Virus record (IMG/VR): IMGVR_UViG_2579779007_000006 | Span: 1-41,819 of that record | DNA length: 41,819 bases | Origin: a virus | Lineage: Duplodnaviria; Heunggongvirae; Uroviricota; Caudoviricetes | Direction: 5' to 3' (one strand) | In this document: positions 1 to 40,451 of the stretch, piece after piece | Position numbering within the stretch: position 1 is the first letter of the stretch | How the letters are laid out: every line of letters starts with the position of its first letter | The notes under the pieces: model-generated | Databases searched by the model: none | What the model saw: only the letters and a program-made list of their open reading frames with translations | Told to the model about the DNA's origin: nothing | Translations under genes and position numbers: made by a program

Positions 1-804
1 TTACTCTTTGTCCTCAACCAACAATGAGTTTTCGAAAGTAAATTCAGGTATGGGAACAACTTTGTCTTGGGAGAAAATAGCTTTTTTAATTACATGTTTA
101 TTTTTACACGTCTTGCAATATAACTCTGCTCCATCCTCCATGTCGCATAATGAGATGTGGTTTTTTTCACCACATATAAAGCAAGCTACTACAGCAGATT
201 GGAGTGATTCATATGTACCATCCGGGGCAAGTCTAATAATAACATAATTATGGCAACCAGCATTTTGGCAATCTATTTTATTATTTTTTTTCACGTAATT
301 TTTAGTAAAAATAATTTCCTTTTTACATTTTTCACATTTTATTTTCTCATAACCTCGATGAAATGTTATGAGCTGATGATCGCACAGTTCAGCTAAATTC
401 GATAATATCGAATTTAGTTTATCTTTATCTACTTGAAATTCTTGCTTTTTTATGGTTGGTTGATGTAAAAAACTCCCAAGGGTATTATACCATTTATTAA
501 GGTCCTTATACTTAATATTTTTATAGTTTGCTGTTATCTCATTAGAGTCATCACAAGTTATAGTTACTTTTAAATCCTGATCTGCTGTTTCCTCAAACAT
601 GCATAAAGATTTTATTGCTTGAGGTGGTTGCCATGTGTTAATTACCGTCTCTGGAATTGTTCCTAGCCCTGCTCTTAATTGAATATATACATGGCACTCA
701 ATTGCAAATCTCAATTCCAATGCACAGTATCTTAAAGAAGCGTTATCCCCAATTTCATAGAGCCTCTTAGCATTGCTAATATGCTCTTTATAATCATACC
801 CCAT
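1..804 (-). CDS. hypothetical Cys-rich protein, 267 aa, several CxxC pairs (zinc-ribbon-like)
   Basis: Complete ORF: stop codon is the reverse complement of bases 1..3, start at 804. Translation has paired cysteines (CEKC, CQNAGC, CFICGEK, CKTCKNK). Strongly AT-rich compared with the phage structural genes. No family recognised. Confidence 0.5.
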   Translation of the reverse strand: MGYDYKEHISNAKRLYEIGDNASLRYCALELRFAIECHVYIQLRAGLGTIPETVINTWQPPQAIKSLCMFEETADQDLKVTITCDDSNEITANYKNIKYKDLNKWYNTLGSFLHQPTIKKQEFQVDKDKLNSILSNLAELCDHQLITFHRGYEKIKCEKCKKEIIFTKNYVKKNNKIDCQNAGCHNYVIIRLAPDGTYESLQSAVVACFICGEKNHISLCDMEDGAELYCKTCKNKHVIKKAIFSQDKVVPIPEFTFENSLLVEDKE

Positions 805-1537
805 ATACTCCCTCCTACATCTCCGGCTAGATTGTAACTTATATAGTGTATCTTAGATCATCTCACTATCTAAGTAAGATATCATGGGGTATCGGAAGTT
901 CAACTCCTCGCATCAGTCAATAATTTAAATAAAAACAGACGGTTATGTCTTTATTTATTGTTTCCTCTAACTTCCTCCCCGTTGATTAACACACGCGCCA
1001 TAGTCAACTAAATCGGTTGCGACCGGGAGAAGCGGTAGCCAAAATTTTGCCACGATACGAGTGCTTGCCATCCCCCCTCAACTTCCGCTTTTGGCACATA
1101 GCAGCCCTAGAGACAGTGGCGTAAAGTCATGGAGGGTCGGTGGCAGGAGATGCAAATCCTCTCATACAAAAATACGTAAAATCAATAACGGCTAGAAATC
1201 ATTCAATACTCGCACTATCTAACATTTACCAGCCAACCGCAGCACGTCTTGCATACGACCTGTCTGCGGTTTCAATCACCTCTCACCACCAGTCCCATCA
1301 ATAATAATTAAACAGCGCCTAAACAAAATAAATAACAACAAGTCAACAACCTCGACAGGATGCCGATGGGATGATGAAGAGATAAGAAAGAATAACTAGT
1401 AAAGCCCTAAAACGTCAGCGTTCAGACGCGTTTTTTACTTAACCGGTAACAAATACGTTGTATCATAGCAACATAAAATGATTGTTCTAAATCAGATTAA
1501 CTCCTCACTTTTGTACAATGTCGCTTACAGGTATACC

Positions 1538-3427
1538 ATGAAATCCGAGACGCTAACTGTCCAACAACTTTTTCAAGACCGCCGACAATACTGCGTTCCA
1601 TTCTATCAACGTGCCTATGTATGGACTCAGCGAAACCAATGGTCAGCTCTACTGGAGGATATCCTAGAGAAAGCACAATCCCGGCTCTCGGGTACAAAAC
1701 CAACTCCCCATTTCCTTGGTGCAGTGGTACTGGAACCTCAACCAAAAAAAGGATTATTAGGTGTAGATTCCATACATATTATTGATGGTCAGCAACGATT
1801 GACCACTCTTCAATATGTTCTGGCATCCATCCGATTAGCATTACGTGCGACAGATCTTTCCAACTTAGAGCCTCTCATTTCGTCTTGCCTGAAAAACTCA
1901 AACGAAGACACAATGCGAAATAAAGAAGTAGAGCGCTTCAAACTGTGGCCAACTTTTCGGGATCAAACTCATTTTATTCAAAGTTTTAATGTTGAAAATA
2001 TTGACGATATCCGGAATGTATTCTCTGATAGTTTCACGCAGCATGGTACGTTGCGTAAGCATTTTAATCACCCGCCATCACTAGAAGCATTATGTTTTTT
2101 TACTGAAGCCTTTATAAAGTGGATTAAAATAGAAAATCACTCACCACGAGAAAATGCTGTAGCATTAATTGAGGCTGTCTTGACGGATCTGAAACTAGTA
2201 AGCATATTTCTCGAGGCTGAAGATGACGCTCAAATAATTTTTGAAACATTAAATGGCAGAGGTGCGGAACTTCATGCCACAGATCTTATTCGCAATTATA
2301 TTTTTATGTGCGCTGAACATGAAAATATTAATGCTGTTGAATTATATGAGAATGAGTGGAAGATCTTTGAAGATACGTACTGGTCAGAAAGACAACGTCG
2401 TGGTCGTATTAATAAACCACGCATGGAGTGGCTAGTGCATGCGACATTGCAATCAGAAAGGCAACGTGAAATCGATCTGTCTCGTCTTTACAATGAGTAT
2501 CGTGATTATGTAAGTAAGGACTTGCCTTCACAACGAGCAGATCTGCAAGTAAAGCGCCTCAAACAATATGCATCACAATATAAAGAATTGGTTGGTGGTT
2601 TTGGCACAACCCCCATCTCACACTTTGGACATCGCATCGCAGCCTATGATGTGACGACACTTTATCCGCTTGCTTTGTTCATTTCGATAGCTAACATCGC
2701 CGATGATGAGAAAGCAGCCATGTATAATGATCTTGTCTCCTACGTAGTACGAAGAGCCGTATGTGGCCTGACGCCAAAGAATTACAACAATGTATTTATG
2801 AATGTATTGCGGCACTTGTCTAAAACGGAAATTTCCAGTGTTGAGTTACGTAATATCCTCAATAGCTTAAATGGCGAAGCCTCACGTTGGCCTGGGGACT
2901 CAGAATTTCTCAACGCTTGCATCAATGCTCCACTTTATCCTGGCAGGCTCGACGCACCGAAAATGCGCTCAATGTTAACGGAACTTGAAAGAGAACTTTG
3001 TCGCCAAGTGAAGACAGAGAAGCCTGATGTTCCAAATCTTTCTAACCTCGATATCGATCATCTTATGCCTCAAAGTTGGTATTCCTGTTGGCCTCTCGAA
3101 AATGGTCATATGGTGACAAATTCAGATGCTACGGTATTGAACCAAATTGTTCTGTCTGGAACCGATCTTACCCCTGAACAGCTACTGGTAAGGAAACGGC
3201 AACAAGCGATAGCTACGTTGGGAAATCTAACTTTGCTTAACCTTAGCGTAAACCGTTCTGTTCAGAATGCTGTATTTCTGAAAAAACGTGATGCTCTCAT
3301 CGTCCACACCAATCTACGACTGAACATTCCACTTATAGTTAAGGATAAATGGGATGAGGATGAAATCCTGGAGCGGGGTAAAAAGTTGGGGGAAATTGCA
3401 TTGAAAGTATGGCCAAAACACGATTAA
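1538..3427 (+). CDS. GmrSD-like type IV restriction endonuclease candidate (DUF262 N-terminal, DUF1524/HNH-like C-terminal)
   Basis: N-terminal FYQRAYVW and IIDGQQRLTT motifs are typical of DUF262; C-terminal DIDHLMPQSW is a His-Me finger-like motif. Start chosen at MKSETLTVQQLF; the longest ORF begins at 1478. Confidence 0.7.
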   Translation: MKSETLTVQQLFQDRRQYCVPFYQRAYVWTQRNQWSALLEDILEKAQSRLSGTKPTPHFLGAVVLEPQPKKGLLGVDSIHIIDGQQRLTTLQYVLASIRLALRATDLSNLEPLISSCLKNSNEDTMRNKEVERFKLWPTFRDQTHFIQSFNVENIDDIRNVFSDSFTQHGTLRKHFNHPPSLEALCFFTEAFIKWIKIENHSPRENAVALIEAVLTDLKLVSIFLEAEDDAQIIFETLNGRGAELHATDLIRNYIFMCAEHENINAVELYENEWKIFEDTYWSERQRRGRINKPRMEWLVHATLQSERQREIDLSRLYNEYRDYVSKDLPSQRADLQVKRLKQYASQYKELVGGFGTTPISHFGHRIAAYDVTTLYPLALFISIANIADDEKAAMYNDLVSYVVRRAVCGLTPKNYNNVFMNVLRHLSKTEISSVELRNILNSLNGEASRWPGDSEFLNACINAPLYPGRLDAPKMRSMLTELERELCRQVKTEKPDVPNLSNLDIDHLMPQSWYSCWPLENGHMVTNSDATVLNQIVLSGTDLTPEQLLVRKRQQAIATLGNLTLLNLSVNRSVQNAVFLKKRDALIVHTNLRLNIPLIVKDKWDEDEILERGKKLGEIALKVWPKHD

Positions 3428-3522
3428 TGCAATTAATAAAATGATTATAGCGGCTTTACATTAGTAAGGCCGCTACTCACTATTAAATCCTTTAATTTGC
3501 AACAAGAACAGCAGTGTCAGCC

Positions 3523-3651
3523 CTAGGTTTCGGACTTTGTACCGCTTATCTTGTCTTCAAAAATCAGCTCGCATCCTGCACAGCTCAACGCATTACGTTG
3601 TAGATCGGTGTTCTGGTCATTTGTTGATACGCGTACATAGCCAATAAGCAT
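3523..3651 (-). pseudogene. truncated Pin/Gin/Cin-family serine DNA invertase (N-terminal 42 codons only)
   Basis: Minus-strand translation MLIGYVRVSTNDQNTDLQRNALSCAGCELIFEDKISGT matches the N-terminus of Pin/Gin invertases, including the catalytic serine context (VRVST), then ends at a stop after 42 codons. The rest of the gene is absent. Confidence 0.75.
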
Positions 3652-3677
3652 GGTAGCTCCCCCTGACAAAAGCAGGA

Positions 3678-4214
3678 ATGATGCCATTTGCTCGTTATTT
3701 CTGCATTTTCATAAACGTTGGTTTGGGAGAAGGTTCGGCATTACCCGTTGGCGTGCCTGTTCCGTGGCCTTCCGCCACTCCGCCAACAGGCTGGCTGAAA
3801 TGCAACGGAGCGGCTTTTTCTGCTGAAGAATACCCGGAACTGGCAAAGGTTTACCCGACCAATAAATTGCCTGATTTACGTGGTGAGTTTATTCGTGGCT
3901 GGGATGATGAACGTGGTGTGGATAGTGGGCGAACTCTGCTTTCAGCGCAAGGAGATGCTATTCGAAACATTACTGGCGGTTTTGGTCAGTTGCGCGTAAA
4001 CAGCGAAATTAATGCAATTGTCGATGTTCAAAGTGTGAGTGGGGCTTTTTACGGAGGTACCTCAGTCAGGAATAACATCAATGTATCTATGACATACGCT
4101 AATGACCGAAAAATCCGACAAGATGTTCACTTCTCGGCGGCAAATGTTGTTCCAACAGCAAATGAAAATCGTCCACGTAACATCGCCTTTAATTATATTG
4201 TGAGGGCCGCATGA
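3678..4214 (+). CDS. alternative tail-fibre C-terminal (variable) segment, silent orientation
   Basis: ORF shares the GLGE junction with the minus-strand tail fibre and lies inside the invertible segment followed by its own tfa. It has no constant N-terminal domain in this orientation. Confidence 0.6.
   Translation: MMPFARYFCIFINVGLGEGSALPVGVPVPWPSATPPTGWLKCNGAAFSAEEYPELAKVYPTNKLPDLRGEFIRGWDDERGVDSGRTLLSAQGDAIRNITGGFGQLRVNSEINAIVDVQSVSGAFYGGTSVRNNINVSMTYANDRKIRQDVHFSAANVVPTANENRPRNIAFNYIVRAA
3706..3731. repeat. invertase crossover site (pix/gix-like), left copy
   Basis: ttttcataaacgttggtttgggagaa; its reverse complement shares a perfect 14-bp core (ttctcccaaaccaa) with 5590..5615. Both copies lie on the codons for LGLGE in the two tail-fibre reading frames. 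Confidence 0.7.
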
Positions 4215-4816
4215 TGAATAAAGCTGTATTGAATAGCGAACTCATTGCCATAAAAGCGGGAGACATTATCATTTATAATTATGATGGTGAAACGCGGGAA
4301 TATATTTCTACATCAACTGAATATCTCGCTGTCGGCGTCGGTATCCCGGCATGTTCCTGTTTGGATGCACCAGGTACACATAAAGCTGGTTATGCAATCT
4401 GTCGCTCTGTAGATTTAAATTCATGGGAATATGTGCCAGACCATCGCGGTGAAGTTGTCTATAGTACCGAAACGGGAGATACCAAAGAAATCGCAGTTCC
4501 GGGTGATTATCCTGAAAATACAACCACTATCGCCCCGTTAACGCCATATGATAAATGGGATGGTGAGAAATGGGTGACGGATACTGAGGCACAGCATAGT
4601 GCCGCAGTAGACGCGGCAGAAGCACAGCGCCAGTCACTGATTGATGCAGCAATGGCTTCCATTAGTCTGATTCAGCTGAAATTACAGGCCGGACGGAAGT
4701 TGACGCAGGCAGAAACAACCCGACTTAACGCCGTGCTGGATTACACTGACGCGGTGACGGCAACAGATACCAGCACCGCGCCGGATGTCATCTGGCCTGA
4801 ACTGCCGGAGGCGTAG
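4211..4816 (+). CDS. tail fibre assembly protein (Tfa), partner of the silent fibre segment
   Basis: Tfa-like C-terminus (APDVIWPELP) mirrors that of the opposite-strand Tfa (APDIEWPTPP); start overlaps the stop of the preceding ORF. Confidence 0.7.
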   Translation: MMNKAVLNSELIAIKAGDIIIYNYDGETREYISTSTEYLAVGVGIPACSCLDAPGTHKAGYAICRSVDLNSWEYVPDHRGEVVYSTETGDTKEIAVPGDYPENTTTIAPLTPYDKWDGEKWVTDTEAQHSAAVDAAEAQRQSLIDAAMASISLIQLKLQAGRKLTQAETTRLNAVLDYTDAVTATDTSTAPDVIWPELPEA

Positions 4817-5228
4817 GCCATTCAATATCTGGCGCACTGGAAGTATCGACCAGTTCCAGTGCGTCCAGATAATCCAGCCACAGATTATATTGCGCCAGAT
4901 CCTCGCCTTTCAGACGACCAATAGCGGCTTTACCGGGCCATTGTTTACTGTTCATGTATTCATTGGCCTGGCTAATTAACTGCTGTTTTTTAGTTTCAGC
5001 AATATCCATAACCATTTTTTTATCTGGCGGAGATATTAATATCCATGCAGGTCTCCCCTGAGAGGTGGCACCTAATATAAAACCATCAGGAGGAATTTGC
5101 GTATATTTATTCCATTCATCATCTGATATTTCGATAGCATCATCTGGCCATCCAATACCGTTGTGATATTCTTCTTTGCGAGTTTCATCATAAAACCACA
5201 ATGTTGATGCACTGAAAAAAATTCTCAT
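4788..5228 (-). CDS. tail fibre assembly protein (Tfa), expressed orientation
   Basis: 146 aa directly downstream of the expressed tail fibre; conserved Tfa C-terminal motif. Confidence 0.75.
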   Translation of the reverse strand: MRIFFSASTLWFYDETRKEEYHNGIGWPDDAIEISDDEWNKYTQIPPDGFILGATSQGRPAWILISPPDKKMVMDIAETKKQQLISQANEYMNSKQWPGKAAIGRLKGEDLAQYNLWLDYLDALELVDTSSAPDIEWPTPPAVQAR

Positions 5229-22251: not shown

Positions 22252-22751
22252 GACTCGATGATTTTCAGAAACGGGTTAGTGGCTTTCTTCTGCCCCGCCA
22301 GGCCAATCAGACGCTGGCGGCTGCTGGGGTCGAGTCCGAGCATTGCCCCCGTGCTGCTCATCTCGGACTCCTGTTCTTTTTTGGCGGTCAGCTCCGGATT
22401 TTTGACCCTGCCGCCCATTGCACCGGTGATGGTGTTGCCCTGTATGGCAATATTTTTCACGGCACGTCGCCAGAACTCATAGGCCACGCACCACCGCTCA
22501 AGCACCGCGAGGTCAGTCACGCACAACAGGCCCTGACCGCAGAGTTCTTTGGTTGTCAGTTGCCACATGATCGTGGCGAGAGGGAGATTTTCTTCTGCGA
22601 ACCACTCCGGTGGCTCAACACCTTTGATGGGCGTAAAAACAGGTTCATCTTTATTCAGGGCTCGCTTGCCGGGGTTTCCGGCCAGCGCCTTGCGCGCCGT
22701 TGGCTTGGGGCGACGCCCGGAACGCCCCGCCGTTCCAGCCATATGCGGCAC
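22248..22751 (-). CDS. terminase small subunit
   Basis: 167 aa with a basic N-terminus, translationally coupled to the large subunit. Confidence 0.8.
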
Positions 22752-23996: not shown

Positions 23997-24273
23997 CCGC
24001 AACGGCCATTTTGATATCTTCCTGGGCTCTCTGTGACTCCTGTGCGATCTGCTGTTTTGCATGCTGGTTAGCCTCCAGAACTGTATTGACGATTTGCAGT
24101 GATTGCAGGACGTTATTGGTAATGGCCATTGCTGATCCAGCATTTCGTACAGACTCATCAGCACGTTTCTTTTCGTACTGATATTTGCTGTAGTAGTGGT
24201 TGGCTGACCAGATGAAAGAACCAATGACAGTAACGAAGAAAGCAGCGATAACCAGCTTATAGCTCAACTTCAT
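23881..24273 (-). CDS. Rz: i-spanin Rz
   Basis: 130 aa with an N-terminal transmembrane segment and coiled-coil region, directly after the endolysin. Confidence 0.8.
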   Translation of the reverse strand: MKLSYKLVIAAFFVTVIGSFIWSANHYYSKYQYEKKRADESVRNAGSAMAITNNVLQSLQIVNTVLEANQHAKQQIAQESQRAQEDIKMAVADDDCASRLVPAAAAERLRKYADSLREHSDGTTASQPDG

Positions 24274-24733
24274 TTACCCCCCCACCAGCCTCTTCAAACC
24301 GTGCAATCAGGTCACCGATTTTATGTTCATACTGACCGTAACCTGCACCAGGTAATGACGCCCAGATATTGCTGCAACGGTCGATTGCCTGACGAATATT
24401 GCCGCGGTCAATCATCGGTAAAGCGCCACACTCTTTAATCTGCTGCAGAGCTACAGCGTCCTGGCTTTCTGGAGAAAAATCTTTCAGGCCAAGCTGTTTA
24501 CGGTAAGCATCCCACCAGCGTGAAAGAAGCTGGTAACGTCCGGCGGCTGTTGACTTGAGTTTCGGGTTTAGCGTGACAAGTTTGCGAGGGTGATCGGAGT
24601 AATCAGTGAAGAGTTCACCACCAACAATAACGTCATAACCGTGGTTACGTGTCGGTTGTCGTCCGTTATCCGTTCCTTCTGACCAAGCCACCATATCGAG
24701 GAAAGCTTTACGCTGGGAATTTAGTACCTGCAT
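24257..24733 (-). CDS. R: endolysin, lambda R-type lytic transglycosylase
   Basis: Near-identical over most of its length to lambda R as recalled (NQRKAFLDM..AWSEGTDNGRQ.TRNHGYDVIVGGELFTDYSDHP...). Confidence 0.95.
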   Translation of the reverse strand: MQVLNSQRKAFLDMVAWSEGTDNGRQPTRNHGYDVIVGGELFTDYSDHPRKLVTLNPKLKSTAAGRYQLLSRWWDAYRKQLGLKDFSPESQDAVALQQIKECGALPMIDRGNIRQAIDRCSNIWASLPGAGYGQYEHKIGDLIARFEEAGGGVNEVEL

Positions 24734-40375: not shown

Positions 40376-40451
40376 TGGTGCCGATAATAGGAGTCGAACC
40401 TACGACCTTCGCATTACGAATGCGCTGCTCTACCAACTGAGCTATATCGGC
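40376..40451 (-). tRNA. thrW: tRNA-Thr (anticodon CGU)
   Basis: The reverse complement reads GCCGATATAGCTCAGTTGGTAGAGCAGCGCATTCGTAATGCG...GGTTCGACTCCTATTATCGGCACCA, a canonical cloverleaf with a CGT anticodon. Confidence 0.95.

Follow-up and report, generated by a model that had tools for sequence, protein, structure and literature searches.

A Cys-rich protein gene, a GmrSD gene, and a tRNA-Pro-derived boundary element in a prophage accessory region of Escherichia coli

The IMG/VR virus record IMGVR_UViG_2579779007_000006 begins with two divergent genes, one for a Cys-rich protein and one for a GmrSD-family restriction enzyme, separated by a spacer of several hundred base pairs (bp). We analyzed this stretch of DNA in its full length of 41,819 bp, hereafter the window. 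We discuss the relation between the two genes, the family to which the Cys-rich protein belongs, the pieces that make up the spacer, and a 181-bp element that lies within it. The locus is an ordinary though instructive prophage accessory hotspot. New here are an unnamed HEPN/zinc-ribbon protein family worth testing for defense and a boundary element, derived from tRNA-Pro and so far unannotated, that nearly every E. coli genome carries.

The locus and its setting

The window represents a prophage that has integrated at thrW; ARAGORN calls a single tRNA in it, tRNA-Thr(cgt) at 40376-40451. The E. coli chromosome NZ_CP062811 is 100% identical to the window. On that chromosome, the host genes paoD, LysR', and a "beta-flower" protein gene (Bflower) lie to the left of the Cys-rich gene, and a truncated pin invertase gene, an invertible tail-fiber segment, and Mu-like baseplate genes lie to the right of the GmrSD gene. 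The locus under study is the accessory region between the tail-fiber module (tail fiber and pin invertase) and the distal prophage end. Its features are as follows, in window coordinates and with lengths in amino acids (aa) or nucleotides (nt).

1..804, minus strand: Cys-rich protein gene, 267 aa, with an ATG start; the window begins exactly at its stop codon.
805..880, minus strand: 5' leader of the Cys-rich gene, with AGGAGG (Shine-Dalgarno) at 811-816, six nt from the ATG.
881..960, plus strand: decayed 3' half of tRNA-Pro(GGG) (proL) at ~881-919, then a proL-type terminator relic at ~920-960, both from alignment to K-12 proL.
961..1091, no strand: filler of the Cys-rich cassette; its final ~14 nt (1078-1091) resemble the 5' flank of other long-form elements (described below).
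1092..1167, plus strand: full-length decayed tRNA-Pro(GGG)-like pseudogene, colinear with K-12 proL; it forms the 5' part of the element's long form.
1176..1278, plus strand: conserved core, with a ~60-nt block (1176-1236), the hairpin CCGCAG...CTGCGG (1237-1269), and TTT (1270-1272), from covariance model, fold, and conservation.
1273..1537, plus strand: leader of the GmrSD cassette, with a promoter-like TTAACC-16-TATCAT at 1439-1466 and a T6 run at 1431-1436.
1538..3427, plus strand: GmrSD-family type IV (modification-dependent) restriction enzyme, 629 aa, from Pfam, PADLOC, and RefSeq.

Four loci recur under working labels: L001 is the window's own variant, L002 the variant with flxA and a truncated ydfV (ydfV'), L135 the variant with a GIY-YIG gene, and L003 phage lambda (J02459).

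Two divergent genes as separate cassettes

The plus-strand neighbor matches both GmrSD domains in Pfam (DUF262/DUF1524; GmrSD_N at 6e-34 and GmrSD_C at 4.8e-20). Read from position 1538, the protein aligns over residues 1-629 of 629 with the PADLOC model mREase_IV (1440.8 bits), and RefSeq, which names the gene a DUF262 domain-containing protein, starts it at 1538 as well. The start is most likely 1538, not 1478, and with that start the spacer runs from 805 to 1537, or 733 bp. An original prediction, made from the sequence of the window, had described a gene-free spacer of about 670 bp dividing the Cys-rich gene from a GmrSD-like gene; the divergence and the lack of genes stand, and the length is corrected by the later start. 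Open reading frames (ORFs) of 60 aa or more are absent from 805..1537, where RefSeq annotates none either.

The same prediction had proposed that the Cys-rich protein is a partner or regulator of the nuclease. Under such a reading, the two genes would form one two-gene system with the spacer as their common divergent regulatory region. They are indeed adjacent and divergent in the window, and both are plausible defense genes. The comparative data are unfavorable to it. Of 5426 complete E. coli genomes, just 3 carry the Cys-rich cassette (1..1091) and hence the pair. An identical GmrSD cassette (1092..3500) usually has flxA and ydfV' on its left, as in at least 17 of the genomes listed; between the two variants, positions 7024-8000 of L002 are replaced by 7898-9091 of L001 (window -103..1091). 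The Cys-rich gene changes neighbors as well: a copy 98% identical to it, in the same position of the prophage, adjoins a 257-aa LEM-3-like GIY-YIG gene that takes the place of GmrSD.

More distant homologues of the Cys-rich gene extend this picture. In 10 other contexts (from Klebsiella, Ewingella, Yersinia, Enterobacter, Pantoea, and an IMG/VR phage contig), none stands beside a DUF262 gene. One homologue lies between ogr/portal and gpA in a Yersinia P2-like prophage, an interval that we take to be the tin/old position of the P2 gene order; others lie at the end of 186-like prophages, after cI, or between tail fiber and integrase in an IMG/VR lambdoid contig. Neighbors elsewhere include AIPR, Mrr_cat with HigBA, and PIN_12/SRAP/HNH genes. 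The co-occurrence check thus speaks against a partnership: the pair is confined to those three genomes, each gene keeps other company at the same prophage position, and no DUF262 pairing appears elsewhere. In addition, the spacer is built of separately inherited pieces, with a junction at 1091/1092. A two-gene system is by now largely refuted by comparative data, and we consider it highly improbable. By comparison of sequences, the Cys-rich gene and the GmrSD gene appear to be unrelated single-gene cassettes that assort independently, which refutes the pairing hypothesis.

A family with a predicted HEPN fold and two zinc ribbons

The Cys-rich gene is AT-rich (GC content 0.27-0.37), and its protein carries paired cysteines in the C-terminal half: CxxC(157,160), CxxxxC(179,184), CxxC(208,211), and CxxC(230,233). 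The 267-aa minus-strand ORF, its base composition, and its several CxxC pairs are all as first described. In the leader, a block beside the ATG is common to the upstream regions of homologues. The view that the protein belongs to no recognized family has also held up in homology searches, since its matches in Pfam, NCBIfam, PHROGs, and PADLOC 2023 are all nonsignificant. Ten remote family members give sub-threshold zinc-ribbon matches in Pfam and one weak PADLOC match (PDC-M02A, 18.9 bits, E 1.9e-4), and a family profile searched against the sequences of the Protein Data Bank (PDB) finds a generic zinc ribbon as its sole match. The family comprises 873 clusters at 50% identity, with members ~25% identical to one another; it is large, unnamed in databases, and new. 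Literature searches by protein accession returned no papers.

Structure prediction divides the protein into two parts. Residues 1-145 are predicted to form a HEPN-fold four-helix domain with a beta-hairpin insert, with the up-down four-helix bundle topology of the HEPN superfamily, and residues 150-250 to form two Cys4 zinc ribbons. Across the family, eight cysteines are invariant or nearly so and fall into two sets of four, beta strands occur there in the model, and this half gives weak matches to Zn_ribbon_4/5 and to the AglX ribbon. Among 49 diverse members, R32, E36, and Y40 on helix 2 and H114 on helix 3 are invariant. These residues may belong to a noncanonical HEPN active site.

From the predicted fold and the genomic position, we infer that the protein may be a stand-alone prophage defense or abortive-infection effector, in which a HEPN nuclease-type domain would be controlled by, or targeted through, the zinc ribbons. 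Several results tell against this assignment. The canonical HEPN motif Rx4-6H is not conserved among the 49 members, which makes nuclease activity uncertain; an R32-x5-H38 arrangement is present in the window protein and its close relatives, and H38 is not kept across the diverse set. Foldseek searches of the PDB give weak matches, hhalign finds no sequence-level link to a DUF4145 protein (probability 0.6%), and the window protein has no match in PADLOC. The protein could instead be a noncatalytic HEPN/zinc-ribbon factor that binds nucleic acid or protein (a regulator, an anti-defense factor, or a lysogeny-associated factor) and not a defense nuclease. We regard this as a doubtful alternative: the R, E, Y, and H remain invariant at ~25% family identity, suggesting an active site, and the gene lies consistently in defense hotspots, beside AIPR, Mrr, GmrSD, GIY-YIG, and toxin-antitoxin genes.

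Two observations concern individual copies of the gene. In the 186-like prophages (L007 6798-7583 and L139 6812-7594), a co-oriented 260-aa gene without a Pfam family precedes the Cys-rich homologue and could be a lineage-specific partner. In NZ_CM129854.1, one of the three genomes with the cassette, the match is split around an annotated IS3-family transposase; a search with 1-1091 matched only from position 75, so that the insertion is apparently in the 3' end of the Cys-rich gene.

Composition of the spacer

Beyond the leader of the Cys-rich gene, the spacer carries a first tRNA relic. The segment 881-919 aligns locally to proL with a score of 27, matched by none of 1000 shuffles. Homologues in Klebsiella (L006), Enterobacter (L009), and locus L144 have, in the corresponding place upstream, a well-preserved 3' half of proL, from anticodon stem to CCA, and then the terminator. 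ARAGORN calls no tRNA at 881-960, and a complete tRNA is absent upstream of the homologues too. To judge from these alignments, the segment 881-960 would be the attachment-site (att) relic of a proL-integrating island that traveled with the Cys-rich gene, the usual distal-att footprint of a tRNA-integrating island. The preserved proL 3' halves beside homologues imply that the gene family rides at the edges of proL islands, and that the E. coli cassette took a decaying att relic along. The idea that the spacer holds a degraded att remnant is thereby supported, and supported twice: by the proL 3' half with its terminator at ~881-960, and by the tRNA-Pro pseudogene at 1092-1167. In the Enterobacter locus, a 3'-end fragment of the transfer-messenger RNA gene ssrA (L009 7654-7700, minus strand; Rfam E = 0.0011) is separated from the tRNA-Pro fragment by a few hundred bp, which points to stacked att relics of different islands.

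For the filler at 961-1091, no homology was found outside the cassette; the blastn matches of the spacer to phages and E. coli start at ~1072. At the other end of the spacer, the GmrSD leader is near-invariant across all copies of the cassette (95% mean column identity). Its promoter-like site at 1439-1466 has 9 of 12 matches, no higher than the shuffle expectation, and a promoter and terminator scan over 700-1700 gives counts not above those of shuffles. A hairpin with a T-run at about 1412..1440 had been put forward as a plus-strand terminator. The T6 run at 1431-1436 is real, but the fold (-4.6 kcal/mol, z = 0.14) is noise: with both strands folded, 104 of 200 shuffles fold equally well, and the terminator scan calls nothing. 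Nor does the small RNA suggested for the spacer find a known family, as Rfam searched at E <= 1 over 805-1537 gives no family and no tRNA match. Over 1-4000, the same search yields chance matches that all lie within the GmrSD gene, among them the archaeal C/D box snoRNA sR41 at 2699-2773 (plus strand; E = 0.003, 26 bits against a gathering threshold of 54), almost certainly due to chance.

A tRNA-Pro-derived element at 1092-1272

The remaining piece of the spacer, 181 bp at 1092-1272, consists of a tRNA-Pro pseudogene, the ~60-nt conserved block, and a hairpin that the original prediction had not mentioned. The hairpin (1235-1272) folds at -17 kcal/mol with z = -4.3, and none of 200 shuffles folds as well. 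Across 80 distinct copies, 7 of its 10 pairs change on both sides, a level reached by none of 500 shuffles and far above that of slid controls. Loop indels hid the hairpin from RNAalifold in a plain MAFFT alignment; a covariance-model alignment recovered it. Constructed from nine copies, the covariance model R1 detects just one in the window (102 bits, E = 6e-24), and with filters off it finds no second copy downstream of GmrSD (E = 9.3). A possible further stem inside the block pairs GGCTAG (1190-1195) with CCAGCC (1229-1234).

In the window, lambda, phage 21, and some other copies, the core has a 5' extension of ~85 nt, and these copies are called the long form. The extension is colinear with tRNA-Pro(GGG) over its entire length (acceptor 5' strand through T arm). 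In the window, a gapless 38-nt local alignment to proL scores 41 (0 of 1000 shuffles); in lambda, phage 21, and loci L034, L053, and L032, gapless alignments score 34-39 (each 0 of 1000), and locus L103 is colinear in the multiple alignment. ARAGORN calls no tRNA in any long-form copy, nor does Rfam at E <= 1 for the window. Since there is no detectable cloverleaf and yet significant homology to proL, we class 1092-1167, like 881-919, as a pseudogene or relic. The tRNA-derived 5' part suggests that the unit may have begun as a tRNA-Pro att segment or as a phage tRNA unit with its own terminator. Among 185,579 species genomes, an intact proL followed by the core has 0 matches, and the long-form pattern has 3, of which only that in Escherichia ruysiae is credible; the others (L147, a Eubacteriales metagenome-assembled genome, and L148, a Planctomycetota one) are probably chance or contamination.

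Conservation of this kind could reflect function in RNA. The element, or its core at 1176-1272, might be a functional noncoding RNA (a small RNA or regulator derived from a 3' untranslated region, ending at the hairpin) or a cis-acting leader of the cargo, in which case function and not recombination would explain the conservation. Consistent with this, the block is 85-90% conserved and stands directly 5' of a covarying hairpin that is often followed by five U; it directly follows dinI-like stop codons in the manner of a 3' untranslated region; its 116-nt fold has z = -3.1; and there are ~3 copies per E. coli genome. These points are set against the lack of an Rfam family, of a conserved sigma-70 promoter upstream of the long form, and of any paper found with the sequence. 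The first stem is nearly without covariation, and the window copy has a mismatch in it and just three U after the hairpin. We judge an RNA function unlikely as the explanation. A peptide product, from a 54-aa ORF (1140-1304) or from the 41-aa ORF that phage 21 has annotated, was also considered and rejected, as indels are not multiples of three and lambda lacks a start; such indels exclude a peptide and are silent on RNA.

Searches for the element in published literature, in DNA and RNA forms, found nothing; literature on proL gave no relevant description of it, and the titles and abstracts of work on ydfK, ynaE, and ynfT contained nothing judged relevant.

Distribution and neighbors of the element

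The element is widespread. Blastn with the spacer finds matches in 5394 of 5426 E. coli genomes, at a median of 3 places, and nearly all of the weaker matches listed fall on 1171-1272; in total, E. coli holds roughly 15,000 copies. The element is also present in 193 phage records, which include lambda, 21, phi80, HK phages, and Stx phages. The lambda copy occupies 24162-24340 (minus strand) in the b region, with ea31 on one side and ea47 on the other. There, ea47 has the full element upstream (L003 2585-2688, lambda ~24153-24256) and a hairpin-only copy downstream (L003 4183-4277, ~22564-22658), the latter at the convergent junction with tfa (orf-194). An unannotated tRNA-Pro pseudogene makes up lambda ~24261-24340.

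Its neighbors follow a pattern. In most prophages, the core starts ~10 nt past the stop codon of a DinI-family gene, often with an integrase gene before that, and faces convergent pin, tfa, or tail-fiber genes, or variable cargo. Downstream cargo includes EcoRII, GIY-YIG, DUF4145 with a zinc ribbon, GGDEF, methyltransferase, hydrolase, and effector genes, sitABC(D), and ydfK; the Qin copy is upstream of ynfT-ydfK-pinQ, and the phage 21 copy upstream of sitABC(D). Hairpin-only second copies also occur: together with the element, they enclose certain cargo genes, lambda ea47 and the GIY-YIG gene among them. Approximately 100 core copies fall into 21 upstream-flank and 36 downstream-flank clusters, in 53 combinations. 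The run of U after the hairpin varies from TTTTT in many copies (Qin and dinI-linked ones) to TTT in the window and none in lambda.

A chromosomal core copy in K-12 lies in the ecpE-ykgJ spacer (L134 8209-8311, minus strand; MG1655 ~304208-304310), and the core is 85% identical to it. This copy is preceded by an apparent degenerate dinI C-terminus and ends ~30 nt before the ykgJ start. At several prophage ends from IMG/VR, int-dinI-core runs straight into ykgJ, consistent with the annotation of phage HK633, whose depositors label the element attP, similar to the ykgJ-yagV intergenic region.

Such copies raise the question of whether site-specific recombination takes place at the element, as an active attP/attB or a secondary att site, with tyrosine integrases inserting cargo or phages there and the pseudogene serving as the att identity block. 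Besides the HK633 attP annotation, where the element fills the int-stf gap, and the K-12 copy between ecpE and ykgJ, this is favored by integrase genes that often lie just upstream, by hairpin-only direct repeats that flank some cargo, and by a tRNA origin, which is typical of att sites. However, lambda, phage 21, and phi80 carry the element far from their known attP, the present prophage sits at thrW with no integrase annotated by RefSeq near 1092-1272, and intact proL is joined to the core in none of the genomes searched. Crossovers between locus variants fall at differing positions within the element and every cargo retains a diverged copy of its own, the mark of homologous exchange. An active att site therefore seems improbable to us.

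Breakpoints and the assembly of the locus

Comparison of locus variants places the breakpoints at the 5' edge of the element (1091/1092) or inside it (~1072-1135). Against the flxA variant (L002), homology begins at 1092, the first base of the pseudo-tRNA. Against the GIY-YIG variant (L135), there are 12 differences in 1-1134 (~99% identity), then ~78% identity across 1135-1272, and homology is gone after 1272. It follows from this drop that each right-hand cargo brings its own diverged copy of the element, with the crossover within the element. Crossover positions that vary within slightly diverged homology imply homologous or relaxed recombination and not a fixed-site recombinase. Relaxed homologous recombination has been described between lambda and defective prophages (De Paepe et al. 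2014, PMC3945230).

Taken as a whole, the best explanation, and one that we hold to be probable, is that the spacer is a patchwork of recombination relics and not a shared control region; that the two genes are independent cassettes; that the element would provide portable homology; and that the Cys-rich protein may be a HEPN defense protein. The pieces of the spacer (the Cys-rich leader, the proL att relic, the filler, the 181-bp element, and the GmrSD leader) would have been left by the recombinations that assembled the locus. Homologous or relaxed (Red/RecT-type) recombination at the element would swap cargo on either side. The hairpin would act as a plus-strand intrinsic terminator or insulator, ending dinI-type or read-through transcripts ahead of downstream cargo, a role proposed because the orientation and U-runs of the copies fit.

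Some points weigh on the other side. The window hairpin is followed by just three T and is not called by the terminator scan. The ~60-nt block appears to be conserved beyond the need of a passive homology patch, which leaves room for a role as RNA, protein-binding site, or att arm; conservation there is inflated in the copies from IMG/VR, which were retrieved by an exact 22-mer within the block. The attP label in HK633 belongs here as well. A bolder version of the exchange reading would make the 181-bp unit a dedicated cassette-exchange site of lambdoid and e14-like prophages, either an internal att site or a structured RNA or DNA that insulates cargo and targets recombination, beside a new single-gene HEPN/zinc-ribbon anti-phage system; we think this has little likelihood.

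Other features of the region adjoin the GmrSD cassette on the right. An N-terminal fragment of a pin/Gin-type invertase lies at 3523-3687 (minus strand; in RefSeq, "recombinase family protein, missing C-terminus"), beside tail-fiber and tail-fiber-assembly ORFs on both strands at 3678-5228 that look like an invertible segment now unable to invert. In the sister variant L136, the resolvase is intact, at 208 aa. A Pin/Gin crossover site or enhancer was considered for the element and rejected, as the hairpin is located by the 3' end of pin and lies apart from the invertible segment.

Implications

The analysis removes two false leads: no partnership links the Cys-rich gene to GmrSD, and what looked like a terminator at 1412-1440 is noise. 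In their place stand two subjects for experiment. An unnamed HEPN/zinc-ribbon family in classic phage defense hotspots is a concrete and cheap candidate for anti-phage screens. The element, unannotated and present in the lambda b region and in ~99% of complete E. coli genomes, offers a testable handle on the recombination that swaps defense genes in lambdoid prophages. If the exchange-site reading is true, it would provide a mechanism for swapping defense and virulence cargo at a "b-region" hotspot in nearly all E. coli.

Comparison with known systems

Stand-alone HEPN abortive-infection proteins are known from prophages: HepS from Salmonella Gifsy-1 (PMC13043305) and Tha from S. aureus prophages (PMC11087260). 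The Cys-rich protein has no sequence similarity to either. HepS has a canonical R100-x4-H105 and no extra domain, whereas in the Cys-rich family the motif is not canonical and two Cys4 zinc ribbons are added. Closer in design are the DUF4145-type proteins (PF13643), which combine the same domains, HEPN and zinc ribbon, and travel as cargo in the same kind of prophage hotspot. Here the domain order is reversed, there is no Pfam match, and the hhalign probability is the 0.6% given above. At four loci (L019, L041, L052, and L105), +323..+1018 from the core, we observed a 231-aa protein of mirror-image architecture, whose zinc ribbon is N-terminal and whose DUF4145 (HEPN) domain is C-terminal. Among GmrSD and other type IV enzymes, the neighbor gene is a regular member, matching PADLOC mREase_IV over its full length and both Pfam domains; a partner protein is neither required nor conserved.

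Fragments of tRNA genes are found as att relics at prophage ends, as in the K-12 pseudogenes ptwF, pawZ, and ttcC. Such relics are partial tRNA copies from integrase-mediated insertion, and the relic at 881-919 fits this description exactly. The pseudogene at 1092-1167 differs from them in that it spans the whole tRNA, rides in phages that integrate elsewhere, and is linked to a downstream block and hairpin. Lambdoid phages also have morons and module-boundary ("linker") sequences, reportedly treated by Juhala et al. in 2000 and Clark et al. in 2001. The element resembles these: it is short, conserved, and noncoding, it separates unrelated genes, mosaic joints fall at it, and the cargo comes with a terminator of its own. 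We found no description in the literature of this element, its tRNA-Pro origin, or its presence in the lambda b region at ~24.15-24.34 kb.

The nearest parallel for the locus as a whole is provided by the P2 tin/old and P4 defense hotspots (Rousset et al. 2022, PMC9122126; NAR 2026, PMC13586616), where unrelated defense genes are likewise swapped rapidly between conserved flanks, by a recombination process that "still needs to be elucidated" (PMC13586616). Unlike those hotspots, the present one belongs to a thrW prophage with a Mu/e14-like tail module, and its conserved flank is a noncoding, tRNA-derived element, not phage core genes.

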